Virus record (IMG/VR): IMGVR_UViG_3300042914_002678
Strand: one strand, 5' to 3'
Length of the DNA: 64,000 nucleotides
Source of the DNA: a virus
Lineage: Duplodnaviria; Caudoviricetes
Shown piece after piece: positions 1,537 through 17,420 of the stretch. The notes below the pieces were generated by a model. That model was not told the DNA's origin. It ran no database searches and was given only the letters and a program-made list of their open reading frames with translations. The translations under genes were made by a program, and so were the position numbers. Numbering within the stretch: position 1 is the first letter of the stretch; every line of letters begins with the position of its first letter.

Positions 1537-2394
1537 ATGAACAAACCTTTACTTAAATGGGCAGGAAACAAGTATAGGGTCCTGCCCTTTCTTATTCCAC
1601 ATATTGGTTACCCAAAGCGTTATTGTGAACCCTTTGGTGGTAGTCTTGCTGTTGCACTGAATACGCCAGCAGAGCAATACATTCTCAACGATGTGAATAA
1701 AGATTTGGTGGCAATCTACCAGAATCTGGTGAATCCAAATGATGATAATTTTATCAAGTATTGTCAAGAACTATTCACCTCAGAAAATAACACCAGAGAA
1801 GCATACATTGATTTGGTAAAACACTTCAATCAGGCAACAGATTCTGTAGAGAGAGCACGATTATTCATCTATCTAAATCGTCATTGCTTCAATGGTCTGT
1901 CAAGATACAACAAAAAGGGTGACTTTAATGTTCCCTATGGTAGAGAGTTTAAAGATAAAAAAACTGGAGAAAAATACATTCAAAGTGCTTATTTTCCTGA
2001 AGAAGAGATGATGAACTTTAGAATGTATTTTCTCACTAAACAACTGGTAAGGTTCACATCACTTTCTTTTGAAGATCCTTCACTTTATGAAGACCTAGAA
2101 GCGGGAGATGTTGTCTATTTTGACCCACCATATGTTCCTGCTTCAGATACTGCTAACTTTACAAGTTATGCTACTGATGGTTTTACTCACGACCAACAGG
2201 TTCAGTTGGCAAACTTAGCAGAATCTCTTGCTGCCAAAGGTATTAAAGTGATTGTGTCCAATCATAATACACCAGTCACACAAGAACTATACAAAAATGC
2301 TACAATCTATCCTATTCAGGTGACTAGAACTATTGCTGCAAATGGCAATAGTAGGAAGAAAGCAGATGAGTTAATCGCTGTGTATTCTTGTTAG
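1537..2394 (+). CDS. dam: DNA adenine methyltransferase (Dam family, alpha class)
   Basis: KPLLKWAGNK, EPFGG (motif I), DPPY (motif IV), and the SRYNKKGDFNVPYG target-recognition hairpin typical of EcoDam/T4Dam. Confidence 0.93.
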   Translation: MNKPLLKWAGNKYRVLPFLIPHIGYPKRYCEPFGGSLAVALNTPAEQYILNDVNKDLVAIYQNLVNPNDDNFIKYCQELFTSENNTREAYIDLVKHFNQATDSVERARLFIYLNRHCFNGLSRYNKKGDFNVPYGREFKDKKTGEKYIQSAYFPEEEMMNFRMYFLTKQLVRFTSLSFEDPSLYEDLEAGDVVYFDPPYVPASDTANFTSYATDGFTHDQQVQLANLAESLAAKGIKVIVSNHNTPVTQELYKNATIYPIQVTRTIAANGNSRKKADELIAVYSC

Positions 2395-2420
2395 GATCGT
2401 CTAAAGTGTCCTAGTAATGT
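2385..2420 (+). repeat. 36-bp junction repeat, copy 1 (5' end degenerate)
   Basis: TTCTTGTTAGGATCGTCTAAAGTGTCCTAGTAATGT; supplies the dam stop TAG (2392-2394). Confidence 0.9.
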
Positions 2421-2434
2421 AAGCACACAACACA

Positions 2435-2845
2435 ATGGCAACTCGCTCTCGCATCGGTCTTGAACTTTCTGATGGTTCTGTTCTTTCTGTGTATCATCAC
2501 TGGGACGGGATGCCTTCTTGGTTGGGTCGTATTCTCAAAACCCATTACAATAGCAAAGAACTTGTTGCTGAACTGATTGATGGTGGTGATATGAGTTCTG
2601 CCTGGACTAATGCTGGTTGGAATAATGAAACCCGCAAACAAGGTCCACTCTATTATACTGAGCGTGGTGATGAGTTTATTGCTCCTCGTCTTGATAAAGA
2701 TGCTGGTGAGTTTCTGACTAAAGATGCAGAGGAGTATGCCTATCTTTATACTCAAGATGAAGGTTGGTTGTGCTATGATACTTGTGATTGGCGCGATTCT
2801 TACCTTGAGAGCATTGAAATTCCCTCTGGAGCACTTGCTGTCTGA
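2435..2845 (+). CDS. Conserved phage hypothetical protein (HWDG motif)
   Basis: 136 aa. MATRSRIG...SVYHHWDGMP resembles a widespread phage family. Confidence 0.75.
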   Translation: MATRSRIGLELSDGSVLSVYHHWDGMPSWLGRILKTHYNSKELVAELIDGGDMSSAWTNAGWNNETRKQGPLYYTERGDEFIAPRLDKDAGEFLTKDAEEYAYLYTQDEGWLCYDTCDWRDSYLESIEIPSGALAV

Positions 2846-2848
2846 TCT

Positions 2849-3040
2849 ATGAAAACTTCTACTGCTCTTGGTGTTGTCTTCTTTGCAATCGTCATTGTTG
2901 TTGTTTCTGTTTTATTTGAAGCATGGTTGCTTGGACTGATTCTGTCTTGGTTTAATGTATCCTTGACCTTCTGGCAGAACCTTGCTATTGTGGTTCTTGC
3001 TAATATGATTTTCAAAAACTCTGGGGGTTCTTCCAAATGA
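2849..3040 (+). CDS. Small membrane protein
   Basis: 63 aa, two hydrophobic segments. Confidence 0.65.
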   Translation: MKTSTALGVVFFAIVIVVVSVLFEAWLLGLILSWFNVSLTFWQNLAIVVLANMIFKNSGGSSK

Positions 3041-3195
3041 ATCGCAAGTACATCGCCGTATTTGCAATAGGTTTTCTTGCCATTATTGGTTGGAATATCT
3101 TTCTAGTTCAACGCGATGATCGAATGTATGATGCTTACTATCGCACAAAAGCGATAGAAAACCTCAAACAACCTCCTAGTAATCAAATTAGGTGA
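3037..3195 (+). CDS. Small membrane protein (not in ORF track)
   Basis: 52 aa MNRKYIAVFAIGFLAIIGWNIFL...; ATGA overlap with the upstream gene. Confidence 0.65.
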   Translation: MNRKYIAVFAIGFLAIIGWNIFLVQRDDRMYDAYYRTKAIENLKQPPSNQIR

Positions 3196-3284
3196 TTTAC
3201 TTTCTTCTCATCTCTGCAGCATTTGGATGGTTCTTCTTCGTACTATTCTCCAAACACTTTGACTACCTAGATAAACGCAAATGA
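3192..3284 (+). CDS. Very small hydrophobic protein (not in ORF track)
   Basis: 30 aa, GTG start, MIYFLLISAAFGWFFFVLFSKHFDYLDKRK; 4-nt overlaps at both ends. Confidence 0.5.
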   Translation: MIYFLLISAAFGWFFFVLFSKHFDYLDKRK

Positions 3285-3418
3285 TTTCTAAACTCCTTCG
3301 TGAACTGATTATGAACGCTGAACGTGAAAAGATTGCCCGTGAGTTCTGGGAAGAGATTGAACGTGAAGCAGCAAAACTTGAGATTCCTGTAGACTACTAC
3401 CTCGCGGAGTTTTATTGA
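3281..3418 (+). CDS. Small hypothetical protein (not in ORF track)
   Basis: 45 aa ending AAKLEIPVDYYLAEFY; coupled overlaps at both ends. Confidence 0.6.
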   Translation: MISKLLRELIMNAEREKIAREFWEEIEREAAKLEIPVDYYLAEFY

Positions 3419-3540
3419 TGACTTTTATTCTTGGAGTTGGAGTTGGTGTTCTCATCACAGTGGGATTTGCACTTCTATCTGTTGCATCCGATGCTGATGA
3501 TGTGATTGGCAAAGATGACGAAAACTACTACAATAAATAA
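3418..3540 (+). CDS. Small membrane protein (not in ORF track)
   Basis: 40 aa MTFILGVGVGVLITVGFALL...; TGATG overlap. Confidence 0.55.
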   Translation: MTFILGVGVGVLITVGFALLSVASDADDVIGKDDENYYNK

Positions 3541-3574
3541 TAATGCCTGCGTTGGGTGCAATCTTCACAGGTAG

Positions 3575-3600
3575 AGGAGGGGCAGAGATGCTCCTTTTCT
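3575..3600 (+). terminator. Hairpin with GAGA (GNRA) loop and T-run upstream of the endonuclease
   Basis: AGGAGGGGCA-GAGA-TGCTCCTTTT (stem includes G-U pairs). Confidence 0.55.
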
Positions 3601-3602
3601 TG

Positions 3603-3610
3603 TATAAATA
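3603..3610 (+). promoter_or_regulatory. T4-type late promoter
   Basis: Exact TATAAATA, 25 nt before ATG 3636. Confidence 0.7.
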
Positions 3611-3635
3611 CTATTGCACCCAACAAAGAGCAGTT

Positions 3636-4337
3636 ATGACTAACAAAGGCAAAATTTATTGTGCCCATTGTATTTTTACTGGAAAGAAATACATAGGACA
3701 AACAAAACAAAAATTACTTTGCGATAGAATAGCAACTCATTTTGCAGATGCTAATAAAAATCATAGTAATGGTAAGTTTCAAAGAGCACTAAAAAAATAT
3801 GGAAGAAGTGGATTTATATGGGGAGTAATTGAAGAGTGTGATTTTGATACGTTAAATGATAAAGAAATCTATTGGATTGCAGAATACAAAACTGTAGAAA
3901 AGGGATATAATCTGTCTCCTGGTGGTGGGCAACCTCCAGAATATTTTTCTAAAGAATATTTGGTAGAAGAACCAAGTGGCAATAGAAAAGAAATTAAGAA
4001 TCTTTCGCAATATTCTAGGGAAAATAACTTAAATGCCGCACATATGCACGAAACACTTTATGGTAAAAGGTTGCACCATAAAGGATATAAACTTATACCA
4101 AGAACTGATGTAGAAATTGAAAGATATGAAAATGAAAGAAGTATAAGAGAGGATACTAGTAGAAAAGGAGCGCCTGGAGAAAAAAATGGTAGAGCGATAC
4201 TTGATTGGGACAAAGTTAATGAAATAAGAAAATTACATAATACCAAGAAATATAAAAATCAAGAAATATCAAATATGTTTGGAATTAAAAAAGTAACATT
4301 AGAAAAAATAGTCTCCAATAAACTGTGGACAGTTTAG
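3636..4337 (+). CDS. Free-standing GIY-YIG homing endonuclease (seg-like) with C-terminal HTH/NUMOD-like domains
   Basis: KIYCAH...KKYIGQT, LNDKEIYWI, GYNLSPGG; C-terminal GEKNGRAIL...EISNMFGI. Start moved from 3543 to the ATG after the late promoter. Confidence 0.88.
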   Translation: MTNKGKIYCAHCIFTGKKYIGQTKQKLLCDRIATHFADANKNHSNGKFQRALKKYGRSGFIWGVIEECDFDTLNDKEIYWIAEYKTVEKGYNLSPGGGQPPEYFSKEYLVEEPSGNRKEIKNLSQYSRENNLNAAHMHETLYGKRLHHKGYKLIPRTDVEIERYENERSIREDTSRKGAPGEKNGRAILDWDKVNEIRKLHNTKKYKNQEISNMFGIKKVTLEKIVSNKLWTV

Positions 4338-4377
4338 AAACCGAACACTTGACTTTTGCCCATAAAACTTTTATGAT
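4320..4377 (+). promoter_or_regulatory. Sigma70 promoter preceded by a GGACAGTT-type dyad motif
   Basis: AAACTGT-GG-ACAGTTT palindrome (4320-4335); TTGACT (4349-4354), 17 bp, TATGAT (4372-4377). Confidence 0.7.
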
Positions 4378-4392
4378 GTATCTGTTAAACAA

Positions 4393-4641
4393 ATGAGGTT
4401 AATGGCACAAAAGTTTCTCTATATCTTGGACTATTTCGTTCCACAGTTTCAATCGGAATATGGTGGATTGCTCAACGTAATCGCAGAAAATGATGAAGAA
4501 TGTTTTGATGTTGTTGTTGAATGGGATAATGAAACCTGGACAGAATACTACAGCAAACTACGAGAAAACATTGTAAAAGCACAACGCTTTCCTCTTCTTG
4601 AAAACGAAGAATCCCGAGTTGTTGAATCTTTTACCACCTGA
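4393..4641 (+). CDS. Hypothetical protein
   Basis: 82 aa ORF after the promoter; the true start may be the ATG at 4402. Confidence 0.7.
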   Translation: MRLMAQKFLYILDYFVPQFQSEYGGLLNVIAENDEECFDVVVEWDNETWTEYYSKLRENIVKAQRFPLLENEESRVVESFTT

Positions 4642-4802
4642 TGATTGAAACTTCAATAAATCGTCTTGAGTTTAACTTAAAACAGCAGTATCAAGAACGT
4701 ATTACTCATCTTCAGCAAAAGATTACGGAGCAACAACATGAAATCTTGCGACTCCAAGAGCAAATCAAATACATGTCAAAAGACAGATTTTACGATTGCT
4801 GA
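4641..4802 (+). CDS. Small coiled-coil protein (not in ORF track)
   Basis: 53 aa MIETSINRLEFNLKQQYQERITHLQQKITEQ...; TGATG overlap. Confidence 0.65.
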   Translation: MIETSINRLEFNLKQQYQERITHLQQKITEQQHEILRLQEQIKYMSKDRFYDC

Positions 4803-5073
4803 GTTTCCGCATCATCCGCCCGAAGGTTATAGTTATGAGTTTGAAGAGTTCAAGCGTGGTGTGGTCGCTGTTTGGTTGCGTTGCCATCGTAAGTTTGACT
4901 ACAATAATGGTGCCACAACTCGTACCATTTGGGGATTCTATAAATCCAAAACCAGAGAATACTTCGCCCCAGTCAATAGTAAGACCATCGGTGCTTGTGT
5001 AAATATCAAGGACACGCGGAACTATACCGCGATGCCGATTAAACTTTCACCACTAGAACTTGCATTTGTATGA
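4738..5073 (+). CDS. Hypothetical protein (start uncertain)
   Basis: 111-aa ORF. The first 18 codons overlap the upstream gene; there is an in-frame ACG at 4792. Confidence 0.65.
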   Translation: MKSCDSKSKSNTCQKTDFTIAEFPHHPPEGYSYEFEEFKRGVVAVWLRCHRKFDYNNGATTRTIWGFYKSKTREYFAPVNSKTIGACVNIKDTRNYTAMPIKLSPLELAFV

Positions 5074-5333
5074 CCTACGAACCACAAGTCAATGATTATG
5101 TAAAATGGACAAAAGGAGTTGAGGGTTGGGTTTACTTTAAGGATAAAGAATACATTACCATTGAGTATAGTGTTCGTCCTAAAGATGAAGTCAACCTTGA
5201 GTGCTGCCCTATCCATAAGAATGAGAGATTACTTGTGATTTGTTATAATGAGCAATGGAAAGAGTTGGAGTACATTACGTCACGAAAATCAATCTATGAA
5301 GAAACAGAAAAATGCTTGGCGATTGCTTGCTAA
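5070..5333 (+). CDS. Hypothetical protein
   Basis: 87 aa; ATGA overlap. Confidence 0.7.
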   Translation: MTYEPQVNDYVKWTKGVEGWVYFKDKEYITIEYSVRPKDEVNLECCPIHKNERLLVICYNEQWKELEYITSRKSIYEETEKCLAIAC

Positions 5334-5553
5334 AGCACTGGGAGAAAAAGCAAGTAAATGTGATAAAGAGGCGGATAGGGTTGCACTTATCCGCCTTGTG
5401 ATGTTTCTGTCTATTCTTATTACCAACTGTTTCATTGTTGCTAATGCTATCAGGCATTGGAATGATAAAACAGAAATCTATTTGATTATTGATGAGAATT
5501 ATGTGCCAAATAGTGGAGTATTAAAGTTAGGATCGTCTAAAGTGTCACTATAA
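5296..5553 (+). CDS. Small membrane protein
   Basis: MKKQKNAWRLLAKALGEK... with one TM segment; reads into repeat copy 2, which supplies its stop. Confidence 0.65.
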   Translation: MKKQKNAWRLLAKALGEKASKCDKEADRVALIRLVMFLSILITNCFIVANAIRHWNDKTEIYLIIDENYVPNSGVLKLGSSKVSL

Positions 5554-5556
5554 TGT
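5521..5556 (+). repeat. 36-bp junction repeat, copy 2
   Basis: TTAAAGTTAGGATCGTCTAAAGTGTCACTATAATGT. Confidence 0.95.
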
Positions 5557-5569
5557 AAGCACAGAATCT

Positions 5570-5704: not shown

Positions 5705-5727
5705 GTGACAGTTTCCAAACTGTCCAC
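5705..5727. promoter_or_regulatory. Dyad motif GTGACAGTT-TCCA-AACTGTCCAC
   Basis: Imperfect inverted repeat in an intergenic position; the right arm matches the AAA(C/G)TGTCC block of the 36-bp repeat. Confidence 0.6.
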
Positions 5728-5768
5728 TAAATCACCCACACACCTCTTTAATCCTTTATTATTCTCAA

Positions 5769-6653: not shown

Positions 6654-6689
6654 TTAAAGTTAGGATCGCTCAAAGTGTCCTAGTAGTAT
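6654..6689 (+). repeat. 36-bp junction repeat, copy 3
   Basis: TTAAAGTTAGGATCGCTCAAAGTGTCCTAGTAGTAT; ATG at 6688. Confidence 0.95.
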
Positions 6690-6986: not shown

Positions 6987-7184
6987 ATGAGTTACATTCA
7001 AATCCCTGATTTTGTGTTTGATAGCATCATCAACAACCTACAAAGAGGTTATGCTGTGTGTGATGCAGTAGACCATAACTCTGAAGAAATAGAGAAGTCA
7101 CCATCCTATGCAACTGGGTACAGTCGTGCTACAATAGCAAGTGTACTTGAAGACCTGAAGCGATACAAACAAACTGTGAATTAA
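6987..7184 (+). CDS. Hypothetical protein
   Basis: MSYIQIPDF...; the stop TAA is supplied by repeat copy 4. Confidence 0.65.
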   Translation: MSYIQIPDFVFDSIINNLQRGYAVCDAVDHNSEEIEKSPSYATGYSRATIASVLEDLKRYKQTVN

Positions 7185-7216
7185 AGTTAGGATCGTCCAA
7201 ACTGTCCCAATACTAG
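7181..7216 (+). repeat. 36-bp junction repeat, copy 4
   Basis: TTAAAGTTAGGATCGTCCAAACTGTCCCAATACTAG. Confidence 0.95.
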
Positions 7217-7228
7217 ATGATGATACCA

Positions 7229-8461
7229 ATGCAAATCCAACTCCGCCCCCATCAAGAACGTGGTGTTGCTGCTATGCAGAAGCACAACAAAGGTCAAATC
7301 ATTGTGCCTACTGGTGGCGGCAAGACTCTCAAGATGATCTATGATGCTCTGCGACAGTTGCAGTCTGAAACTCCGCAGACCATTGTTGTAGTTGCTCCGC
7401 GTATTTTGCTTGCTGAGCAACTCTCTTCTGAGTTTCTTGAGTTCATCACTAATGCTAAAGTCTTCCACGTCCACAGTGGAGAAACTCACCACGAATCTTC
7501 TACTCGCCCTCAAGAGATTCGCAACTGGGTTGAGCGCAATGCTGGCAATCATCGCCTGATTGTAACCACCTACAACTCTCTGTCGCGTCTTCAAGTGGCA
7601 GAGATTGATGTGGATACGATCTACTTTGATGAGGCACATAACTCTGTTCAGCGTCACTTTTTCCCTGCAACTGAGCACTTCTCTGCTAACGCAAAGCGTT
7701 GCTACTTCTTTACCGCAACTCCAAAGCATAGTCTTGCTGTTGGCAAACCTGGGATGAATGATGCTGCTGTTTATGGTCAGGTCATCTGCAAAGTTCCTGC
7801 TCCTGAGTTGGTTGAAGGTGGTTACATTGTGCCCCCTAAAGTCATCGTCAAGCAACTTGCTATGGTGACTGGAAAGCAGACCAACTTTGACCGCGACGCG
7901 GAGAATCTGCTGGAAACGATTGACGACAACAAAGTCGGCAAGATTCTGATTTGTGCTAAGGCAACCAAGCAGATTGTCTCCCTGGTGTCTGAAACTGATT
8001 TCTGCACTCAACTAGAGTTTCGCGGATACTCTTGGATGTATATTACTGCCAAGACTGGAGCAGTCATTGATGGTCGCAAAGTGAACCGTGAGGTATTCTT
8101 TGACACCCTATCTGCCTGGGGCAAAGACAACTCCAAGAAGTTTGTGGTTCTGCATCATAGCATCCTCGCAGAAGGCATCAACGTCAGCGGTCTGGAAGCA
8201 GTGCTGTTTCTTCGCAACATGGACTTCATCGGTATCTCCCAGACCATTGGACGTTGCATCCGTTTGCATCACGATGATGCCAAAGGTATGCGCGATGGAC
8301 GTATTGAACCTGGCAACCTGAGTCAGTATAGCAAATCGTTCGGTCTTGTGTGCATCCCTGTCTACAGCAAGGTTGGTATTGCTACTGCCCGCAGTGTTCA
8401 GTCGGTTGTTGACACTATCTTCCAGAAGGGCGAACCTGCCATCTCTGTGGTGAGGCGGTGA
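7229..8461 (+). CDS. SF2 DEAH-box helicase (ResIII-like)
   Basis: LRPHQ (Q motif), PTGGGKT (Walker A), DEAH, TATP, QTIGR.IR. Start may instead be 7217. Confidence 0.9.
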   Translation: MQIQLRPHQERGVAAMQKHNKGQIIVPTGGGKTLKMIYDALRQLQSETPQTIVVVAPRILLAEQLSSEFLEFITNAKVFHVHSGETHHESSTRPQEIRNWVERNAGNHRLIVTTYNSLSRLQVAEIDVDTIYFDEAHNSVQRHFFPATEHFSANAKRCYFFTATPKHSLAVGKPGMNDAAVYGQVICKVPAPELVEGGYIVPPKVIVKQLAMVTGKQTNFDRDAENLLETIDDNKVGKILICAKATKQIVSLVSETDFCTQLEFRGYSWMYITAKTGAVIDGRKVNREVFFDTLSAWGKDNSKKFVVLHHSILAEGINVSGLEAVLFLRNMDFIGISQTIGRCIRLHHDDAKGMRDGRIEPGNLSQYSKSFGLVCIPVYSKVGIATARSVQSVVDTIFQKGEPAISVVRR

Positions 8462-8579: not shown

Positions 8580-8756
8580 ATGAAAGAAGGATTTACAATG
8601 TTCAAAGACACCTATGCTGCTGTTCCTTATGGTAATCAACTGATGGTCATTCACAACGGAGAGCAACTCAAAGTGTGCAGGACCGAAGCATCAGCTAGAA
8701 AGTTCATTGATGACCACAAAAAAGGTAAATCAATGGCAAAACTTCCTGTCAATTAA
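8580..8756 (+). CDS. Small hypothetical protein (not in ORF track)
   Basis: 58 aa MKEGFTMFKDTYAAVPYGNQLMVIHNG...; stop supplied by repeat copy 5. Confidence 0.65.
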   Translation: MKEGFTMFKDTYAAVPYGNQLMVIHNGEQLKVCRTEASARKFIDDHKKGKSMAKLPVN

Positions 8757-8788
8757 AGTTAGGATCGTCTAAAGTGTTCCCATAGAGT
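8753..8788 (+). repeat. 36-bp junction repeat, copy 5
   Basis: TTAAAGTTAGGATCGTCTAAAGTGTTCCCATAGAGT. Confidence 0.95.
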
Positions 8789-8801
8789 GAGTGCTCCCAC
8801 A

Positions 8802-9542
8802 ATGCAACAAGTAATCAAGCAACTGATTGAGGATTGTACCTCTCATCTTCCTAAAGCATTGCGATGGTACACTGATGTCAACCAACCGATTAAGGTGATT
8901 GATGATACCCTCAGTGAGGTCATCCACGCATACTGCCACAACACAAGATGTGGTGGTTCTGGTGGTGGTGGATGGGACCACGTTGATAATGGCGAAGACA
9001 AGAATAGTTCGCACATTCAATCCTACATCTGCCCTGATTGTGGTAAGAAAGTAGTATTCTTTGCTGAGCAATGCCCCTCTTGTGGTAGTACAAAGCGCGG
9101 TAAGATTCCTCACGATGGACGTTGGGGAATCAGTGCATCTTCTCACTTTAAGTGGTATGATGAACTAAAAGAATACCGACTCCAACTGATTGAACCTCTG
9201 ACAGATGATGCTTCTTGTCGTCAGTTTCGCCTGCGTTATTGGGTGCTTGCTAAAGACTCTGAGCACCTGAATCTTTATGCAAAAGCACAACTAGAGAGTC
9301 CAAAGTCTAATCACATCAACTTCCAACCATTGAAGGTTGATTTCTACCTGAGTCGCCCTATTCTCAAGTATGATGGTGTACTCACCATCCACGATGATCG
9401 TACTCAATTTGAGTTTGATTTCTTTGATTTGGATAACCAAACTCCTGAAGAAATCCCTGTAGAGTATGCTGGTGCAAACTCCCAAACTGTGGTAGAATCT
9501 AAGAAACTTGGCAAGGAGCGTGGAGAATGGGTGAGGAACTAA
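8802..9542 (+). CDS. Putative restriction endonuclease (PD-(D/E)xK-like) with CxxC..CxxC zinc ribbon
   Basis: GWD-HVDNG-EDK fits a D...ExK site; CPDC...CPSC; overlaps the start of a methyltransferase gene. In-frame GTG at 8787 lies in the repeat. Confidence 0.5.
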   Translation: MQQVIKQLIEDCTSHLPKALRWYTDVNQPIKVIDDTLSEVIHAYCHNTRCGGSGGGGWDHVDNGEDKNSSHIQSYICPDCGKKVVFFAEQCPSCGSTKRGKIPHDGRWGISASSHFKWYDELKEYRLQLIEPLTDDASCRQFRLRYWVLAKDSEHLNLYAKAQLESPKSNHINFQPLKVDFYLSRPILKYDGVLTIHDDRTQFEFDFFDLDNQTPEEIPVEYAGANSQTVVESKKLGKERGEWVRN

Positions 9543-10450
9543 TTTACAAGAATCAAGACTGTATTGAGTTCCTCCAGTCCCTAGAAAGTAGGTCTGTAGA
9601 TTTAATCTGTACAGACCCACCTTACTATCGTGTTGTCAACGATGAGTGGGACAATCAGTGGTTCACTATAGACCAATACTACGAATGGTGTGAGCAGTGG
9701 ATTACTGAGTTGGGTAGAGTTGCCAAGTGGGGATGTAGTTTCTGGTTGTTTGGTTTCCCACAACAACTCTGCAATCTTCTGCCTGTGATTGAACGTGCTG
9801 GATTCACATTCCGTCAGCAGATTGTAGTGAACAAAGGGATGCAAGCAGTTGCAGGTAGAACAAGTGATAAACTTAAAATGTTTCCTACTGCCACCGAATC
9901 TATCTTCTTCTTTCACTATGAAGCAAGAGATTACATCCGTGATTTACTACAGGCAGAGCGTAAAAGATTGGGGTGGAAAGGTTGCGACGTGAATGGATTT
10001 CTTGGTAAAGCAACAACAGGTGGTGGCACATTTGCTTGCATTGCATCCGAAAAGAAACCACGGGAGCATAGAGTCTACCCTACCAGAGATGATTGGACTA
10101 AGTTACAAGAAGTAATGAATCTTCCTGAGTATGATGAACTGGTCTACACATTTAATTTACAGCGAGGTCTGACAGATGTGTGGGATGACATCAACTTCTA
10201 TGACCGCAAAGTTGAGAAGTTCCATAGCACACAGAAACCTATTCCGTTAATGGAAAGGTTAGTGCTTACTTCATCCAAACCAGGGCAAACAGTTCTTGAC
10301 ATTTTTGGTGGATCAGGTTCTACTGGTGTTGCTTGCAAAATGCACGGAAGAAAGTTCGTTGGTTGTGAAGTTGATGAGACATACTATCAGAAGTCACTGC
10401 AAAGAATTGAAAGCACAGAAAAACAGTCAACTCCTATTGATTTCTTCTGA
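9527..10450 (+). CDS. Beta-class amino (N6A/N4C) DNA methyltransferase with internal insertion
   Basis: DLICTDPPY at the N-terminus; HSTQKP and LDIFGGSGS at the C-terminus. Confidence 0.9.
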   Translation: MGEELIYKNQDCIEFLQSLESRSVDLICTDPPYYRVVNDEWDNQWFTIDQYYEWCEQWITELGRVAKWGCSFWLFGFPQQLCNLLPVIERAGFTFRQQIVVNKGMQAVAGRTSDKLKMFPTATESIFFFHYEARDYIRDLLQAERKRLGWKGCDVNGFLGKATTGGGTFACIASEKKPREHRVYPTRDDWTKLQEVMNLPEYDELVYTFNLQRGLTDVWDDINFYDRKVEKFHSTQKPIPLMERLVLTSSKPGQTVLDIFGGSGSTGVACKMHGRKFVGCEVDETYYQKSLQRIESTEKQSTPIDFF

Positions 10451-10451
10451 A

Positions 10452-10487
10452 TTAAAGTTAGGATCGTCCAAACTGTCCCAATAGTAT
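10452..10487 (+). repeat. 36-bp junction repeat, copy 6
   Basis: TTAAAGTTAGGATCGTCCAAACTGTCCCAATAGTAT; starts 1 nt after the MTase stop. Confidence 0.95.
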
Positions 10488-10500: not shown

Positions 10501-11409
10501 ATGCAGAACAAGCACCTAGAGCATCCTGAAGATGAGATCCTGACGGGCAATCTGTCAGTTCTGGATTGGTTCTCTGAGGTAGATTCTACCATCAGCATCA
10601 AGATGGATGGTGCGCCTGCTATCGTTTGGGGAACTAATCCTCAGAATGGTAAGTTCTTTGTTTGCACGAAAGCAGCATTTAACAAGAAAAAGATTCGCCT
10701 TTGCTATAACGAGGATGACATCTTCACTCATTTCGGTGGACAACCTCGTGTAACTCAAATCCTCATTTTCTGCCTGGATTTTCTGCCTCGCACTAAGCAA
10801 GTGCTGCAAGGTGATTGGATTGGTTTTGGTAGTGGGTTGGATACATTTACTCCCAATACAATTACCTACAAGTTCCCTGCACCAGTTCGTCAGGACATTA
10901 TCATTGCTCCGCATACAATCTACAGCGGTTCTGATGACATCCGTGAGATGATTGCTGCTCCTCTGCAATCCAAACTCATTAGCACTAAGCATTGCCTGTT
11001 TGTGCAACCTGAAGTGGAACTGAACCCTTATCGTGAAGATTTGGAGGATGTGTGTAAGTTTGCCAAGCAAATGAGCACTCTGTGTGAGTTTGTGACGCCG
11101 AACAAAGCAACACAAATCAAAAAAGAGATTAACGCTTGCATCAGGGAGCAAATCCCCGTGAATGAAAATGAAATTGCAGAAAAATGCGATTGTGACATCA
11201 ACCTGATTCGTTTGTGGAAACTCGTTGCATCTATCAAGGAAGATTTGTTCCTGTTCATTCACGAGAAGGATGAGATTGAGTGTTACATTCACGATGTGCA
11301 ATCCTTCCACGAAGGTTATTGTATCACCAACAAACACGGCATTTATAAAGTCGTTGATCGTGAAGTATTCTCTCATGCCAACTTCACCATCGCTAAGAAT
11401 TGGGGTTGA
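10501..11409 (+). CDS. Conserved phage protein (HLEHPED), possible ligase-type nucleotidyltransferase fold
   Basis: SIKMDGAP (KxDG), EGYCI and YKVVDR resemble ligase motifs I, IV and V. Upstream in-frame ATG at 10486. Confidence 0.55.
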   Translation: MQNKHLEHPEDEILTGNLSVLDWFSEVDSTISIKMDGAPAIVWGTNPQNGKFFVCTKAAFNKKKIRLCYNEDDIFTHFGGQPRVTQILIFCLDFLPRTKQVLQGDWIGFGSGLDTFTPNTITYKFPAPVRQDIIIAPHTIYSGSDDIREMIAAPLQSKLISTKHCLFVQPEVELNPYREDLEDVCKFAKQMSTLCEFVTPNKATQIKKEINACIREQIPVNENEIAEKCDCDINLIRLWKLVASIKEDLFLFIHEKDEIECYIHDVQSFHEGYCITNKHGIYKVVDREVFSHANFTIAKNWG

Positions 11410-11410
11410 A

Positions 11411-11446
11411 TTAAAGTTAGGATCGTCCAAAGTGTTCTAGTAGTAT
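11411..11446 (+). repeat. 36-bp junction repeat, copy 7
   Basis: TTAAAGTTAGGATCGTCCAAAGTGTTCTAGTAGTAT. Confidence 0.95.
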
Positions 11447-12412: not shown

Positions 12413-12448
12413 TTAAAGTTAGGATCGTCCAAAGTGTCCTAGTAGTAT
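12413..12448 (+). repeat. 36-bp junction repeat, copy 8 (consensus)
   Basis: TTAAAGTTAGGATCGTCCAAAGTGTCCTAGTAGTAT. Confidence 0.95.
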
Positions 12449-13327: not shown

Positions 13328-13363
13328 TTAAAGTTAGGATCGTCGAAAGTGTCCTAGTAGTAT
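13328..13363 (+). repeat. 36-bp junction repeat, copy 9
   Basis: TTAAAGTTAGGATCGTCGAAAGTGTCCTAGTAGTAT. Confidence 0.95.
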
Positions 13364-13532
13364 GAGCAAAACATTCACCGTCCGTTTCGTATCCGATGCC
13401 CTGGATTCTCCAGAATACATTGGACCTTTCTACTCTGAAGATGAGGCACAAGATTATGCTGATGATCGCAACAGTTCTTTAGCATTATCTGGTATTCCTT
13501 CCTCTGTTGCTTGTTACTCTGTTGTTGACTGA
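13362..13532 (+). CDS. Small hypothetical protein (not in ORF track)
   Basis: 56 aa MSKTFTVRFVSDALDSPEYIGPFYSEDEA...; only Met is from the repeat. Confidence 0.6.
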   Translation: MSKTFTVRFVSDALDSPEYIGPFYSEDEAQDYADDRNSSLALSGIPSSVACYSVVD

Positions 13533-13534
13533 TT

Positions 13535-13771
13535 ATGAGAACTCTTACACTCCAAGTCACCGAAGTTACATTTGATTTTGATGACGAAGATTTCACCGTA
13601 GAAGAACAACAATCGGTCATCAATTCTGTTGTTGGTAATGTCTTTGAGGTTGAAGTTGATGATGACGATGATGATGAAGCAATCGCAGATGTGTTAGTTG
13701 AAGAGGTGACAGATTACACTGGTTGGTGTGTTTTTTCCCTTGATTTTGTCCACGTTCTGAATACTCATTGA
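13535..13771 (+). CDS. Highly acidic small protein
   Basis: 78 aa, 22 D/E versus 1 R and 0 K. Confidence 0.7.
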   Translation: MRTLTLQVTEVTFDFDDEDFTVEEQQSVINSVVGNVFEVEVDDDDDDEAIADVLVEEVTDYTGWCVFSLDFVHVLNTH

Positions 13772-13772
13772 A

Positions 13773-13913
13773 ATGAGAATTGCTCTTTTGATTGCTACTC
13801 TTGCACTCGGTCTTAAAGTAGGTTTAGCAGCACATGCTACCGTGAATGTGTATCAAGAACAGCAAGCAGAAAAGTTCTGCCAAATTGACCCTAACTATTG
13901 CAACGCAAAATGA
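13773..13913 (+). CDS. Small secreted/membrane protein (not in ORF track)
   Basis: 46 aa MRIALLIATLALGLKVGLAAHA... Confidence 0.55.
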   Translation: MRIALLIATLALGLKVGLAAHATVNVYQEQQAEKFCQIDPNYCNAK

Positions 13914-14122
13914 CTCTTTCCTCTGACCAACTTTCCAAACTTGTTCAACTTTATGCTGAGCGAGTTGTTGATAGCATGGATGTGCGCGATTTGTGTGCAT
14001 TTGCCATTGATACAATTTGTGACAACATGCACGACTATAATGAGTCTGAATTGATGGAAGAATTGTCACACTATTATGAAGAAGATGAACTCAACGAACT
14101 GGTTGAATCTGTAAAGGATTAA
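13910..14122 (+). CDS. Acidic small protein
   Basis: 70 aa from the ATGA overlap, 19 D/E; stop supplied by repeat copy 10. Confidence 0.7.
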   Translation: MTLSSDQLSKLVQLYAERVVDSMDVRDLCAFAIDTICDNMHDYNESELMEELSHYYEEDELNELVESVKD

Positions 14123-14154
14123 AGTTAGGATCGTCCAAAGTGTTCTAGTAGTAT
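14119..14154 (+). repeat. 36-bp junction repeat, copy 10
   Basis: TTAAAGTTAGGATCGTCCAAAGTGTTCTAGTAGTAT. Confidence 0.95.
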
Positions 14155-14169
14155 CAGCACCGAACCACA

Positions 14170-14760
14170 ATGAGCAAACTAACAACGAATGAGGTTTATG
14201 GCAAACTGAAAGTAACTGATTTCAGTGTATTTGAGAAACCTGGAAAGAACAAAGGTGCTCGTGGGCAACTGTTAGAAATTGCCCTTGGAGTTCCTAACTC
14301 TTCTGACCTGCAAGATCTGGAAGATGGAGAGATTAAGACTTTCACGATTGGTGAAAGCATTGCAGCAACACAGTTGAAGCATTGTTTGTCTGAAATCATC
14401 GAAGATTCTGTATCTTTTGAGAATAGCAAAGTCGGGCAGAAACTGAAGCAAACTCTTTATGTTGGTTTCACCCGTAGCAATGATTATGTCGGTTGTGCTG
14501 TACTGAATGAAGAAACTGATCCTCAGCACTATAACGAATTGCGTGAGGATTATGAGTTCATTTGTAACAGCATCCGCACACTTTTCAATGCTGGCAAAGA
14601 ACTTTCTACCATCACTGGACCTCACGGATTGCTGCAGATTCGCACCAAAGCATCTAAAACCAACGGTCGCTATGTACCTCTGACCTTTGCAGGTGTGACC
14701 CTGAAGGATAAAGGAATGGCATTTTATTTGTGTGGACAATTCGGACGCAATCTGTTCTGA
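14170..14760 (+). CDS. MutH/Sau3AI-family endonuclease
   Basis: NKGARGQLLEIALGVPNSSDLQDLEDGEIKT matches the MutH pattern KG..G.LLE..LG...S...D....E.KT. Confidence 0.8.
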   Translation: MSKLTTNEVYGKLKVTDFSVFEKPGKNKGARGQLLEIALGVPNSSDLQDLEDGEIKTFTIGESIAATQLKHCLSEIIEDSVSFENSKVGQKLKQTLYVGFTRSNDYVGCAVLNEETDPQHYNELREDYEFICNSIRTLFNAGKELSTITGPHGLLQIRTKASKTNGRYVPLTFAGVTLKDKGMAFYLCGQFGRNLF

Positions 14761-14761
14761 A

Positions 14762-14797
14762 TTAAAGTTAGGATCGTCTAAAGTGTCCTAGTAGTAT
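14762..14797 (+). repeat. 36-bp junction repeat, copy 11
   Basis: TTAAAGTTAGGATCGTCTAAAGTGTCCTAGTAGTAT; starts 1 nt after the nuclease stop. Confidence 0.95.
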
Positions 14798-14963
14798 GAG
14801 CATCACACTTGACCTTGAAATGGCATCCGAACTAATCGGATTTATGAATGACTTTCCTGTTGCAGATTTGAATGATTGTGTAGACTTCATCTGTGACAAG
14901 TTTGACATCTCTGCATCTGATGAGTTGATTGATGCTATCGCTGACTTTTTCTTTGCTAACTGA
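14796..14963 (+). CDS. Acidic small protein (not in ORF track)
   Basis: 55 aa, 13 D/E versus 1 K. Confidence 0.6.
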   Translation: MSITLDLEMASELIGFMNDFPVADLNDCVDFICDKFDISASDELIDAIADFFFAN

Positions 14964-14969
14964 TAACAA

Positions 14970-15152
14970 ATGACACACTACAATCCTTATGTTCAAAACC
15001 TGATTGAGATGGGTTATGATGAGCAAGACTGCCGTAATGTTGCTGCAGTTGGTGAAACAAACGTAACCTATCCGCGTACCATTCACTGCCGCACATTTGC
15101 AACTGAAAGTGAATACAAGGAAGCACTTGCTGATTTCATCAATGGAATGTAA
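14970..15152 (+). CDS. Hypothetical protein
   Basis: 60 aa MTHYNPYVQNLIEMGYDE... Confidence 0.65.
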   Translation: MTHYNPYVQNLIEMGYDEQDCRNVAAVGETNVTYPRTIHCRTFATESEYKEALADFINGM

Positions 15153-15304
15153 TGAGTCGCAAAACTTTAACATTCAAGTCACCTTGTAAAGTGAAGACAA
15201 TTCTTCTCATTTTCATTGTTGCGTTTATACTTTCACCAGGAGTTCGTAACACTACCTCAAGCACATTGCACACTGTAGCAGACATTATTTCAACCAATGA
15301 TTGA
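15152..15304 (+). CDS. Small membrane protein (not in ORF track)
   Basis: 50 aa with one TM segment; TAATG overlap. Confidence 0.6.
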   Translation: MSRKTLTFKSPCKVKTILLIFIVAFILSPGVRNTTSSTLHTVADIISTND

Positions 15305-15437
15305 AACTCAATTCTTTATTCTTGATGCTGAACAATTCCAAGAATACACACAATTAGCAGATGAGGTTGGTGTTACATTAGACTATTATTTGTCTGAGTT
15401 TTGTGATGTCGAAGGACCAACCATTACTAGCAATTAA
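15297..15437 (+). CDS. Small acidic protein (not in ORF track)
   Basis: 46 aa ...ADEVGVTLDYYLSEF...; stop supplied by repeat copy 12. Confidence 0.6.
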   Translation: MIETQFFILDAEQFQEYTQLADEVGVTLDYYLSEFCDVEGPTITSN

Positions 15438-15469
15438 AGTTAGGATCGTCGAAAGTGTCCTAGTAGTAT
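15434..15469 (+). repeat. 36-bp junction repeat, copy 12
   Basis: TTAAAGTTAGGATCGTCGAAAGTGTCCTAGTAGTAT. Confidence 0.95.
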
Positions 15470-15668
15470 GAGCAACACTTCAATCAACTACAATCTCATC
15501 AAGCAACAACTTGGCACTGTTGTGATTGATAGCAACTGGAAAGAATACGTCGTTTCTGATTATAAGATTGGATGCGATGCTTACCAACTCTGGAACAAAG
15601 AAGAGCAGCAGTATTATTATACTGACTACAATGCCTTCAATGCACTTTTCACTCAAATCTCTGGTTGA
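15468..15668 (+). CDS. Hypothetical protein
   Basis: 66 aa; only Met is from the repeat. Confidence 0.65.
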   Translation: MSNTSINYNLIKQQLGTVVIDSNWKEYVVSDYKIGCDAYQLWNKEEQQYYYTDYNAFNALFTQISG

Positions 15669-15685
15669 TTTCTAACACAAACACA

Positions 15686-15868
15686 ATGACTCAAACTGAC
15701 ATCAACAATGCAATCAATGCTGCATTTGATAATCTTTTCTCACTGAATGAGCAGTTGTTTGATTATTGGTATTGGGAACTTCACAAGACTAATGATTACC
15801 CAATCTCTGAGCGTTGGAATGAACAAACACTGTATCAGATGGAGAAGGATGTGATGATGAACTCCTGA
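15686..15868 (+). CDS. Hypothetical protein
   Basis: MTQTDINN...; ATG preferred over the track's TTG at 15665. Confidence 0.55.
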   Translation: MTQTDINNAINAAFDNLFSLNEQLFDYWYWELHKTNDYPISERWNEQTLYQMEKDVMMNS

Positions 15869-15873
15869 GGCAA

Positions 15874-15909
15874 TTAAAGTTAGGATCGCCCAAAGTGTCC
15901 TAGTAGTAT
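15874..15909 (+). repeat. 36-bp junction repeat, copy 13
   Basis: TTAAAGTTAGGATCGCCCAAAGTGTCCTAGTAGTAT. Confidence 0.95.
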
Positions 15910-15930
15910 AAGCACAACCACAAAACCACA

Positions 15931-16242
15931 ATGCGAGTCATCGAAAAGCAAATGAATGATGCAATCTCTCAAGAGATTGATTGGAAGAAAGATAACACTG
16001 AAGTTATCAACATTGAAGGTGTATCTTTTGTCTATCTGTATAACAATCTGATTGCAATGGTTGCTGATACTTGGTTGGAATTGTTTGATGGCGGACATAA
16101 GACTGCAACCACCAAGTCTCGCCTTAATGCTATTCTCCAAGCACATGGAAATGGAGAGTACATTTTCCAGAAAAACTTTGAGTGGATTGTTTATACCAAT
16201 CAAACCAATGTTCCTTTCAACAATGGTATCAAACTGAACTGA
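15931..16242 (+). CDS. Conserved phage hypothetical protein
   Basis: 103 aa; contains GGHKTATTKSRLNAIL. Confidence 0.75.
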   Translation: MRVIEKQMNDAISQEIDWKKDNTEVINIEGVSFVYLYNNLIAMVADTWLELFDGGHKTATTKSRLNAILQAHGNGEYIFQKNFEWIVYTNQTNVPFNNGIKLN

Positions 16243-16249
16243 TAATACA

Positions 16250-16399
16250 ATGACAAAATCGTTCAAAAAGTTCATCTGGAAAGACTCTAACTCTGACCAA
16301 ACAAAAGTTATCATAGCAAGGTCAGAATACTCAGCAAGGAAACAAAACTTTGGCAATCTTGCTGGTTATCTTTACTCTCACTCTGTTCCTCTTAAATGA
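16250..16399 (+). CDS. Small hypothetical protein (not in ORF track)
   Basis: 49 aa MTKSFKKFIWKDS... Confidence 0.5.
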   Translation: MTKSFKKFIWKDSNSDQTKVIIARSEYSARKQNFGNLAGYLYSHSVPLK

Positions 16400-16533
16400 C
16401 ATTCACGATTCGCTATTTCACTCCTTATCAGCAACAGTGGAGGACGCAAAGTTTCTCTACATTAGAAGAGGCAGAACGCATGGTTGAGTTTTACAAATCG
16501 TGTGGAAGTCCTGCTGAATTGGTCAACAACTAA
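16396..16533 (+). CDS. Small hypothetical protein (not in ORF track)
   Basis: 45 aa ...QWRTQSFSTLEEAERMVEFYKSCGSPA; ATGA overlap. Confidence 0.65.
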   Translation: MTFTIRYFTPYQQQWRTQSFSTLEEAERMVEFYKSCGSPAELVNN

Positions 16534-16541
16534 CTCTCTCA

Positions 16542-16778
16542 ATGTTACTCTCCAAGTCTTCATTCAACGACCAAAAAGTTCTTCCTTTCATTGTTAAGAA
16601 AGAAGCAAAAAGAACTGAAGATGGTGTCTACTCTCTACACCTATTCTCCCGAATTGTGATGACTAAGGAAGGGAAGAAGTATAGGTATCTACCTCTTAAG
16701 TTTGAAGGTGAGTTAGCAATGTTCCGTAAAAGAAGGGATGCAGAAGATTATGCAAGGTACAGATTAGCACTTGATTGA
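16542..16778 (+). CDS. Hypothetical protein
   Basis: 78 aa ORF. Confidence 0.65.
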   Translation: MLLSKSSFNDQKVLPFIVKKEAKRTEDGVYSLHLFSRIVMTKEGKKYRYLPLKFEGELAMFRKRRDAEDYARYRLALD

Positions 16779-16838
16779 ATACACATAGGGAGCAATCATC
16801 AGCATCCTTTTTTTATGCTTATTTGAGTGATTTATAGT

Positions 16839-16877
16839 AAAAAAACAATAAAAAACGATTAAAAATGTATTAAAAAA
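16839..16877. other. Four phased A-tracts
   Basis: A5-A7 runs start at 16839, 16850, 16861 and 16872 (11-bp period). Confidence 0.7.
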
Positions 16878-16898
16878 TGTATTTGAGTGTTGTAAATC

Positions 16899-16953
16899 AT
16901 TCTCAATAAGTTATAGTTTATTGAGAATCATTAGGGGTTATTATTGAGAATGA
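16899..16953. repeat. Three copies of TTATTGAGAAT (one inverted)
   Basis: ATTCTCAATAA 16899-16909 (inverted); TTATTGAGAAT 16918-16928 and 16941-16951. Confidence 0.8.
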
Positions 16954-16969
16954 GGAGGGCATTTATGAC

Positions 16970-17027
16970 CAATTAAATGTGCTCAGACCTTGTGTTTATA
17001 GTCAATTAAATGTGCTCAGACCTTGTG
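16970..17027 (+). repeat. Perfect 25-bp direct repeat pair
   Basis: CAATTAAATGTGCTCAGACCTTGTG at 16970-16994 and 17003-17027. Confidence 0.9.
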
Positions 17028-17039
17028 ATCTTAGCGTGC

Positions 17040-17068
17040 ATGATAACACGACCCCGCAAAAATGTCAA
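17040..17068 (-). promoter_or_regulatory. Minus-strand sigma70-type promoter
   Basis: The reverse complement reads TTGACA, 17 bp, TATCAT. Confidence 0.6.
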
Positions 17069-17142
17069 GACCCCCCGCGTTCTCAAATCCCCACAATCCC
17101 CCCGCACAAATACCCCACCCCATCATAAATACACCCTAGGAC

Positions 17143-17171
17143 TTGACACAAACACCAGAGCATCTTACAAT
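17143..17171 (+). promoter_or_regulatory. Sigma70-type promoter
   Basis: TTGACA (17143-17148), 17 bp, TACAAT (17166-17171). Confidence 0.75.
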
Positions 17172-17198
17172 ACCTCTATACACATTCGGAGCGTACTT

Positions 17199-17372
17199 AT
17201 GTCAGTTGCTTATCAGACAGCACAGAAGCAGCGTTATAGAATCACTCTGGATCTATCAGTGTTCGGTGACTTCGACCCACACCAGATTGACTGGGAGAAG
17301 TTATTCAAGTTGGAACCTGCAGAGAAGTGTGATGCCTACGTTGAGGACCTAAGTGTACCTGACCGCTGGTGA
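17199..17372 (+). CDS. Small hypothetical protein
   Basis: MSVAYQTAQKQRYRITLDL...; ATG after the promoter and GGAG. Confidence 0.65.
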   Translation: MSVAYQTAQKQRYRITLDLSVFGDFDPHQIDWEKLFKLEPAEKCDAYVEDLSVPDRW

Positions 17373-17384
17373 TGTGTAGGGGAA

Positions 17385-17420
17385 TTAAAGTTAGGATCGT
17401 CCAAAGTGTCCTAGTAGTAT
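17385..17420 (+). repeat. 36-bp junction repeat, copy 14 (consensus)
   Basis: TTAAAGTTAGGATCGTCCAAAGTGTCCTAGTAGTAT. Confidence 0.95.

Follow-up and report, generated by a model that had tools for sequence, protein, structure and literature searches.

A repeated start-codon module, candidate promoter and recombination handle, in the accessory gene array of T4-like cyanophages

The 64,000-nucleotide stretch of viral DNA analysed here (IMG/VR record IMGVR_UViG_3300042914_002678, hereafter the window) stems from a T4-like cyanomyovirus and harbours an array of small accessory genes punctuated by 14 copies of a direct repeat. We propose, with a probability of about 0.6, that this repeat is a reiterated non-canonical promoter, combining an operator-like block with a start module, which also works as a passive recombination handle. 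This reading is based on the way in which the repeat fills the intergenic gaps exactly, is strand-specific, precedes each unit and surpasses the flanking genes in conservation.

Results

Copies of the repeat in the window

A preliminary description of the window had placed 14 same-strand copies of a 36-bp repeat at gene junctions, and all of them are present on the + strand (Table 1). The invariant 10-mer GTTAGGATCG occurs 14 times in the 64-kb window versus 0.06 times expected from shuffles, and ten copies match the 36-mer consensus with at most three mismatches where chance predicts none. An nhmmer profile built from the 14 copies retrieves exactly these 14 from both strands of the 64 kb (E values of 1e-13 to 1e-18), with no further copy above noise on either strand. 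The invariance described for positions 6–15 (14/14) and 1–15 (13/14, the exception being the copy at 2385) is right. As for the length, the 36-mer is real but the conserved stretch is longer, running from an invariant A at position 0 to RAGCA at positions 37–41, and a weaker A/T signal at −12 to −8 is seen over 100 distinct copies from relatives. All 14 copies are located between open reading frames (ORFs) of the same strand, i.e. at gene junctions, and all fall within 2385–17420, while the virion part of the window (17421–64000) contains none; on both points the preliminary description holds for 14/14 copies.

Stops, starts and the absence of a fold

The stop codons of upstream genes cluster at positions −4 to +5 of the module, with ∼6% of upstream ORFs entering the core. 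All three frames are closed within positions 1–38 in 71% of copies (TAA at 2–4, TAG at 31–33, TRA at 36–38). The frame of an ATG at position 35 (ATG-35) remains open for at least 40 codons in 381 of 410 copies (93%), compared with 0 and 14 for the other two frames. Since the phrog_818 and DUF7717 profiles align from residues 3–6 of the gene at 11445, this ATG-35 is a real start; besides, the CDS starts annotated in GenBank coincide with the embedded ATG in S-SM2 and SynMITS9220M01. Copies devoid of ATG-35 display GTA or ATA there, GTG being almost absent (4/200), and the following genes start 49–83 nt into the module, most commonly at positions 50–53, after a G-poor CA-rich leader. Among the 382 ATG-35 copies opening at least 40 codons, codon 6 (position 50) is itself an in-frame ATG in 43%, versus a background of 2.5% per codon, and 61% have one at codons 4–10. 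ATGs at position 50 are exemplified in the window at 10501 and 8802, and such nested starts 15 nt apart recur across unrelated genes. Positions 41–49 are G-poor even where they are coding. The first two copies lack ATG-35 in the arrays examined (window, G001 and G003), as does the first copy of SynMITS9220M01.

No Shine-Dalgarno sequence adjoins the ATGs: ATG-35 is preceded by TATAGT and ATG-50 by the G-poor CA-rich sequence, and the AGGA of the block found in the window lies 22 nt upstream and is missing in other block types. Similarly, there is no excess of folding energy compared with random windows of the region (−5.1 versus −5.8 kcal/mol for the motif; −7.6 versus −8.3 kcal/mol for the 55 nt upstream), and a 5-bp TAGGA/TCCTA pairing is lost in variants. 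An RNA hairpin or a known RNA family was rejected on the basis of this folding energy, of the absence of covariation and of the absence of any Rfam match. The motif contains no conserved inverted repeat and no attC-like single-strand fold. The preliminary description had also denied the repeat an attC-like fold and the stem-loop and −35 layout of promoter-early stem-loops (PeSLs), which is correct according to the folding energies and to a scan for sigma-70 promoters.

A module family with a lineage-specific block

Across its family, the module consists of a lineage-specific block of 10–12 bp followed by the conserved core AAAGTGTCC, TATAGT/TAGTRT and RAGCA. A search of related phage contigs finds the exact window-type block in ∼33 uncultured viral contigs, with 2–14 same-strand copies apiece. 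Distant relatives with the same gene order display a module of equal length at the same junctions, in which positions 14–42 are kept and positions 3–13 are replaced, for instance by GTTACTCACC or CTGGGGCC. A search with the core only returned at least 120 stretches, and the pooled loci (>240) give at least 642 distinct copies and 98 block types. Among cultured marine phages, S-SM2 has seven copies and SynMITS9220M01 several, S-B05 shows one weak match (80% identical), and the core pattern was not found in Syn9, S-PM2, S-CRM01 and P-HM2. A complete relative of 284 kb has its 11 copies grouped on one strand within a single stretch of 13.5 kb, the reversed-pattern control giving zero. The module belongs to one sub-clade of T4-like cyanophages (Kyanoviridae).

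In the window-type lineage, the block is 95–100% conserved, compared with 70–85% identity for the flanking genes, and the divergence of the motif is about 10% versus 15–30% for neighbouring genes. Block variants are genome-wide, GTTATGATCG being present at six junctions of one contig and ACTTGGATCG at three junctions of another. The mean number of differences over 34 positions is 3.05 between paralogues within a genome, 3.45 at the same junction across genomes and 4.43 at other junctions, and the likeness of paralogues within genomes was reached by 0 of 2000 permutations. Foreign blocks concern 14 of 643 copies (99 loci), and arrays are 97.8% pure in block type. This purity, together with the likeness of paralogues, indicates that the copies convert one another, that the block co-evolves with a trans-acting factor, or both. 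Within otherwise pure arrays, foreign-block copies occur singly at L039:9461, L127:4103, L119:9223, L217:7950 and L198:7317 (coordinates of oriented loci), the one in L119 being the last of its array and preceding the homologue of w17637. Copies of this kind look like candidate recently imported cassettes that brought their own module, or inter-lineage crossovers.

Rearrangements at and away from the repeats

Gene order was compared over ∼45 related contigs or loci, in which 43% of junctions carry the motif and the order of the array is broadly conserved. Several cassettes behave exactly as units bounded by the repeat. The 440-bp unit 15434–15873 is absent from L045, L039 and L127, where two alignment blocks overlap by exactly one motif, and the 1699-bp methylase unit 8753–10451 is missing whole, motif to motif, in L134, L132 and L124. 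Other cases are the f30/f38 units, present or absent between w9527 and w10486, a motif-bounded cassette with the Dam gene located at another motif site in L126 and L121, and the w14796–w14970 unit, which is translocated to the 13328 site in L131. In total, 85 distinct indel states were counted. Motif junctions account for 47 (55%), of which 18 run from motif to motif, and the other 38 are at junctions without the motif. Among replacement states, 42 of 80 have no motif at either end, and two small genes were swapped without it. In strains that are 99% identical, the two latest changes (loss of the ORF 16250–16399 and replacement of copy 4 by an HNH gene) involved no motif-to-motif exchange. The expectation that gene order breaks exactly at the repeats is partly supported: several cassettes agree with it, and many indels fall elsewhere. 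The repeats are used as crossover points, and they are neither necessary for plasticity nor its dominant route.

The HNH replacement is found in L068 (2975–3560, facing window positions 7186–7238; 99.4% identical upstream), where the endonuclease gene replaces copy 4 from its seventh base together with the first codons of the helicase. The gene carries a TATAAATA signal that lies within a hairpin, and a TTGACT promoter of its own follows downstream. Beyond the gene, identity in the helicase is down to 92.6%, a pattern suggestive of co-conversion during homing. Two further presence/absence polymorphisms that are not bounded by the repeat were observed in lake metagenome contigs: the GIY-YIG gene (3452/3512 to 4401) and the 49-codon ORF 16250–16399 (window 16243–16402), the latter also in the 99.9%-identical L103. 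Reads from one RNA run (X24) and three DNA runs reliably support three structural variants, namely the GIY-YIG indel, the loss of the ORF 16250–16399 and the replacement starting at 7186. Read joints between motif copies have sides of at most 31 letters and are possible mis-placements among look-alike copies.

None of G001, SynMITS9220M01 and S-SM2 (two complete cultured isolates and one genome rated 100% complete by CheckV) encodes a tyrosine or serine recombinase domain (PF00589 and PF00239), with controls positive in 14 and 12 of 14 genomes; no such domain was found among the array ORFs either.

Promoter signals and transcription-start geometry

On the + strand between 5.5 and 17.4 kb, there is no strong canonical sigma-70 promoter (no 10-of-12 match), and no strong terminator was found on the array strand between 5.4 and 18.3 kb. 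Because a canonical promoter, TTGACT-17-TATGAT, lies upstream of this interval (Table 1), the phage also uses ordinary host-type promoters; another, TTGACA-17-TACAAT, is found at 17143, and TATAAATA-like late signals are present around the array and in relatives. The expression signal postulated in the preliminary description is likely, given that the motif fills the intergenic gap with fixed start positions and that no strong canonical promoter or terminator occurs over 12 kb, and from this context we infer its promoter activity.

Within the module, the best hexamer in terms of conservation is TAGTRT at positions 31–36 (T31, A32 and T36), with a yTG at 8–10 and a 17-bp spacer. A −10 element at 31–36 would set the transcription start near positions 41–44 and give a leader of 7–9 nt to ATG-50, an arrangement that suits about three-quarters of the copies. 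The purines at positions 30–35 are each more than 96% conserved. As an alternative −10 element, TAGGAT (positions 8–13) with a start at A20 was rejected, as this block is replaced by unrelated sequence in other lineages while the rest is kept. A T7-like promoter is very unlikely: no PF00940 polymerase was detected in complete genomes, a search in which the control was silent, although the core may resemble the SP6 promoter. A search of G001, W01 and W06 for MotA (PF09114) gave no match, the control genomes being silent too. RegA (PF01818) was looked for in three motif-bearing genomes and found in each, which leaves room for a translational-operator role.

Palindromes made of AAACTGT/ACAGTTT adjoin ordinary promoters in the window (4318–4333 and 5707–5725). 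In L257 and L258 (S-SM1 and S-RIM8), AAAGTGTCCACTAT precedes a TTGATT-17-TACTAT promoter by ∼17 nt. The motif core may thus contain, as its first half, an older and wider protein-binding box.

Genes of the array and GATC sites

The window encodes gp6-like baseplate proteins, a tail sheath and a terminase, whose genes share ∼73% DNA identity with those of the Synechococcus phages S-SM2 and Bellamy, and its DNA is also present in many lake-water metagenomes. The array is located between the Dam methylase and the baseplate genes. In S-PM2, the Dam gene begins the corresponding region, and the array presumably matches the 'ORFanage' described in this phage (PMC4503421). Its identified products are a GIY-YIG homing endonuclease, a UvsW-like helicase, an N6/N4 methylase, DUF6267, DUF7717 and DUF7326 proteins and a distant MutH homologue, the remaining genes being small ORFs with no family match. 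Among the functions initially proposed, the methylase of a restriction-modification-like pair was confirmed, its neighbour being only an unidentified zinc-ribbon protein, and no ligase-like gene was found in the searches of array genes. For the unit at window 8787–10450, the N6/N4 methylase is kept in relatives, and the gene before it is exchanged there for at least four other unrelated families (f50, f79, f114 and f141), as if a partner module was swapped.

The nuclease announced as MutH-like shows a distant homology to the family (NCBIfam NF003458, E value of 1.4e-11; residues 17–195 against positions 32–216 of the 223 of the profile, i.e. full-length), with a score far under the family cut-off. 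NCBIfam alone was positive, no match being obtained with PDB sequences or Pfam, and a single-sequence fold was unusable (mean pLDDT of 34). The protein corresponds to phrog_15364 and has 807 metagenome homologues (E ≤ 1e-5), some of which are named MutH by JGI; among the 120 matches listed of these 807, all are at least 82% identical.

GATC is contained in the window-type and ACTTGGATCC-type blocks. Among 15 loci with the MutH-like gene, 11 have GATC-type blocks and four have non-GATC blocks, and many lineages possess neither a GATC block nor the gene. A strict link between both was rejected; it holds at the syntenic slot (9/9 versus 0/11) but suffers four exceptions elsewhere. Outside the repeats, GATC is depleted in the array (15 sites versus ∼54 expected for the whole array), and its frequency elsewhere in the window is close to that expected. 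Other short palindromes are strongly avoided in the window, with GGCC present twice versus 71 expected, AGCT at 0.18-fold and CATG at 0.25-fold.

Table 1. Coordinates of the repeat copies and associated features in the window (position 1 is the first base of the 36-mer)
Feature	Coordinates	Strand	Remarks
Dam-type (D12 class) adenine methylase	1537..2394	+	Immediately 5' of the array; stop TAG inside the motif of copy 1, positions 8–10
Copy 1	2385..2420	+	Most divergent 5' edge (TTCTT); no ATG-35; next gene 2435 (motif position 51) after CA-rich leader
Sigma-70-type promoter TTGACT-17-TATGAT	4349..4377	+	Canonical; consensus scan
Copy 2	5521..5556	+	No ATG-35; next gene starts 5570 (position 50)
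Palindromic box with CCAAACTGTCCAC	5707..5740	+	Resembles the motif core in degenerate form; gene 5769 lies downstream
Copy 3	6654..6689	+	ATG-35 at 6688; second in-frame ATG 6 codons on; in relatives, ATA at position 35 and second ATG used
Copy 4	7181..7216	+	Precedes UvsW-like helicase (ATG 7217)
Copy 5	8753..8788	+	GTG at position 35, ATG at position 50; opens zinc-ribbon + N6/N4 methylase unit
Copy 6	10452..10487	+	ATG-35 at 10486, in-frame ATG at position 50; DUF6267 protein
Copy 7	11411..11446	+	ATG-35 at 11445, sole plausible start; DUF7717/phrog_818 gene
Copy 8	12413..12448	+	Exact consensus; sole early start is ATG-35 at 12447
Copy 9	13328..13363	+	ATG-35 at 13362; translocated cassette at corresponding site in L131 and L041
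Copy 10	14119..14154	+	ATC at position 35; MutH-like gene from 14170 (position 52); ATG-35 in relatives
Distant MutH-family endonuclease homologue	14170..14760	+	Single-gene unit between copies 10 and 11
Copy 11	14762..14797	+	ATG-35 at 14796; heads w14796–w14970 unit
Copy 12	15434..15469	+	ATG-35 at 15468; heads 440-bp unit 15434–15873
Copy 13	15874..15909	+	ATA at position 35; next gene from 15931 (position 58)
Copy 14	17385..17420	+	Exact consensus; last of the array; ATG-35 at 17419

Discussion

The repeat is a composite module. The upstream gene stops at its A/T-rich 5' edge, which is followed by the block of 10–12 bp, near-uniform in each genome and varying by lineage, then by the conserved core with TATAGT/TAGTRT, the G-poor CA-rich stretch and a start codon at position 35, at ∼50 or at both. 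Such a module would start or restart the expression of each small accessory unit between the Dam/helicase and baseplate genes. As strong terminators are absent from the array strand, read-through RNA probably crosses the junctions as well. Homologous recombination is vigorous in the phage, and its direct repeats of ∼40–55 bp would therefore also provide passive crossover points. As was proposed for PeSLs, homologous recombination or gene conversion would then account for the motif-to-motif deletions, insertions and translocations and would keep the copies alike.

Several observations weigh against this proposal. No copy of the motif reaches 9 of the 12 positions of the sigma-70 consensus, whereas the ordinary promoters found elsewhere score 10–11. 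A transcription start at positions 41–44 would exclude ATG-35 from the module's own transcript, and about one-quarter of the copies (five in the window) have no start codon besides ATG-35. Genes of this type would either be translated from read-through RNA, which is possible because the array is free of terminators and for which the absence of ATG-35 from the first copies of arrays can also be cited, or be transcribed from a start at or before position 35 (30–35) through an unnamed mode of recognition. In addition, no transcript 5' end was mapped at the module with the X24 contigs, which are short, partly derived from relatives and broken at the repeat. On the side of recombination, plain ORF indels at motif-free junctions form the largest single class (33 of the 85 states), and the enrichment of indels at motif junctions is ∼1.3-fold, counted on non-independent states. 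The notion of a recombination site, as initially suggested, is partly supported: the motif-to-motif indels, the translocated cassette and the concerted evolution of the copies speak for it, and these numbers against.

A more specific version of the promoter reading can be put forward tentatively, well short of even odds. The module may constitute a third promoter class of T4-like cyanophages, beside the host-type early and the TATAAATA-type late promoters, in which a lineage-specific phage factor would read the block and which would yield leaderless or short-leader mRNAs, or nested starts serving read-through and own transcripts. If so, it would be the counterpart of the MotA/AsiA middle mode, and the block would co-evolve with its factor and serve as a tag of the compatibility of imported cassettes. 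In T4, middle promoters combine a MotA box at −30 with a sigma-70 −10 element, the phage factor replacing the recognition of the −35 region. The likeness holds only if transcription starts near position 43, in which case the block would be centred near −30 and TAGTRT would be a TAnnnT −10 element. In contrast to T4, the box shows no sequence relation, conservation extends to the spacer, the putative −10 element is overlapped by an in-frame ATG, and the search for a MotA homologue, whose control was silent, detected none. A variant of the T4 middle promoters, named PmSL, has also been described (PMC4122927).

Among other explanations, the one that survives best, although we regard it as rather unlikely, places the function of the module at the RNA level. 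A long polycistronic RNA would arise from few ordinary promoters, and the motif would be a signal for translation initiation or reinitiation, a translational operator or a processing signal. In its variants, incoming ribosomes would be stopped in all frames before the start of the next gene, a phage protein such as RegA would bind the motif, or a cut would generate short-leader mRNAs. The start-associated sequences (SAS) of Cluster K mycobacteriophages would be an analogue. Start codons fixed in or just past the motif, the three-frame stops and the downstream sequence that is G-poor and CA-rich whether coding or not are consistent with such a role, as are the lack of terminators, which makes read-through plausible, and a 151-nt contig of the RNA library that spans copy 14 and begins 13 nt upstream of it. 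The RegA gene of the three genomes tested points in the same direction, but RegA is known from cyanophages in general and is therefore not discriminating. Conversely, in one-third of the copies the start lies at a variable distance of 49–83 nt from the motif start, which excludes the conserved part as a fixed ribosome-binding site, and the module displays no Shine-Dalgarno sequence, conserved RNA fold, covariation or Rfam family. Moreover, a lineage-specific block and a distribution restricted to one region suit DNA-binding specificity better.

A further explanation, which is improbable, is that a phage DNA-binding protein occupies the copies for a different purpose, for instance as a nucleoid-like organiser or in a repressor/operator array that times shut-off, with promoters located elsewhere. 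Such a protein would agree with the lineage-specific block and the type-pure arrays, and a part of the core, AAASTGTCC, recurs in the palindromic boxes next to ordinary promoters (see above) and upstream of sigma-70-type promoters in S-RIM8 and S-SM1. However, no other promoter candidate was found over 12 kb, and a mere binding array would require neither the strict association with start codons nor the confinement to one strand.

The excision, capture or reordering of units envisaged in the preliminary description would, as a dedicated system, depend on a phage enzyme that recognises the repeat. This explanation is the least probable and very doubtful: the motif-bounded indels and translocations would fit it, but the absence of a tyrosine or serine recombinase in three genomes and in the array, the absence of an attC-like fold and the largest indel class, which avoids the motif, all contradict it. 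Its variant, in which the MutH-like protein would nick GATC in the copies with a timing set by Dam methylation, is a low-probability side hypothesis; it would draw on the GATC-bearing blocks, the Dam gene flanking the array, the distant MutH inside it, the 11 concordant loci and the depletion of GATC outside the motif, but most lineages have neither GATC nor the MutH-like gene and yet display the same arrays and shuffling, and four loci mismatch.

Returning to the promoter and start module, its closest counterparts are the PeSLs of T4-type phages (RB49/phi1, T4/PST and KVP40/nt-1; Arbiol 2010, PMC2839356; Comeau 2014, PMC4122927). Both are dense, co-oriented and highly conserved regulatory repeats of hyperplastic accessory regions that immediately precede small ORFs and seldom occur in virion modules, with the upstream stop codon within an A/T-rich 5' part. 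Both are associated, in the case of the module in part, with insertions, deletions, replacements and displacements between relatives, and recombination would proceed by ordinary homology with no dedicated enzyme. Unlike PeSLs, the module has neither a stem-loop/terminator nor sigma-70 consensus hexamers. Its start codon is embedded or lies ∼15 nt after the repeat with no Shine-Dalgarno sequence, stops are present in three frames, the block is lineage-specific and the copies are confined to one stretch of 13–15 kb. Furthermore, promoter activity and mini-circles were demonstrated experimentally for PeSLs (PMC2839356, PMC4122927), whereas the promoter role of the module is one that we infer. The study of S-PM2 found no dense PeSLs in this phage (PMC4503421). 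Searches of the available literature on the motif, on PeSLs in cyanophages and on leaderless mRNAs of cyanophages yielded no description of the element.

Other repeats share part of these properties. The SAS and ESAS elements of Cluster K mycobacteriophages are, respectively, a 13-bp sequence with a Shine-Dalgarno core 3–7 bp before the start and inverted repeats (Pope 2011, PMC3203893), and the differing upstream elements of SAS were interpreted as protein binding sites of different specificity (PMC3203893). As in our case, they are asymmetric repeats of one orientation, found in a non-structural region and tied to the ATG of unrelated genes, with a conserved core and an upstream element that varies by sub-lineage; function is unproven for both. 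They differ by their host and virus group, which are unrelated, and by the module having a −10-like core, no Shine-Dalgarno sequence and a block with no clear inverted repeat. The intergenic repeats of halovirus HF2 were shown to be promoters, and very long read-through transcripts coexist with them (Russ 2021, PMC8707807). These elements of 29–58 bp likewise keep their sequence and position throughout a virus genus; however, they are TATA/BRE-type promoters of an archaeal virus, with no sequence relation to the module and no evidence there of cassette shuffling. Finally, integrons also consist of unrelated gene units split by a repeated site, but the module arrays have no integrase or folded attC, and the repeat stands with a start codon at the 5' end of the unit. 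The units appear to carry their own expression signal. Altogether, the module resembles a PeSL in its working, with two defining PeSL features missing, the stem-loop and the sigma-70 consensus; its own additions are a start codon within the repeat, stops in three frames and the lineage-specific block.

T4-like cyanophages rank with the most abundant viruses of lakes and oceans. To our knowledge, they have no MotA/AsiA, and the timing of many of their accessory genes is unsettled. In this context, the module marks a compact regulon of 10–14 units in a defined sub-clade, and because this sub-clade includes cultured phages, the polymerase or factor, the RNA start and the choice between nested starts are directly testable. 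The 98% purity of blocks, together with the rare cassettes with a foreign block, offers a natural system in which concerted evolution of cis-elements can be set against co-evolution with a trans-factor. Besides, the idea of regulatory repeats as handles for modular exchange, which stems from PeSLs, is extended to cyanophages, with the caveat that the handles analysed here explain only a minority of the changes in gene content.

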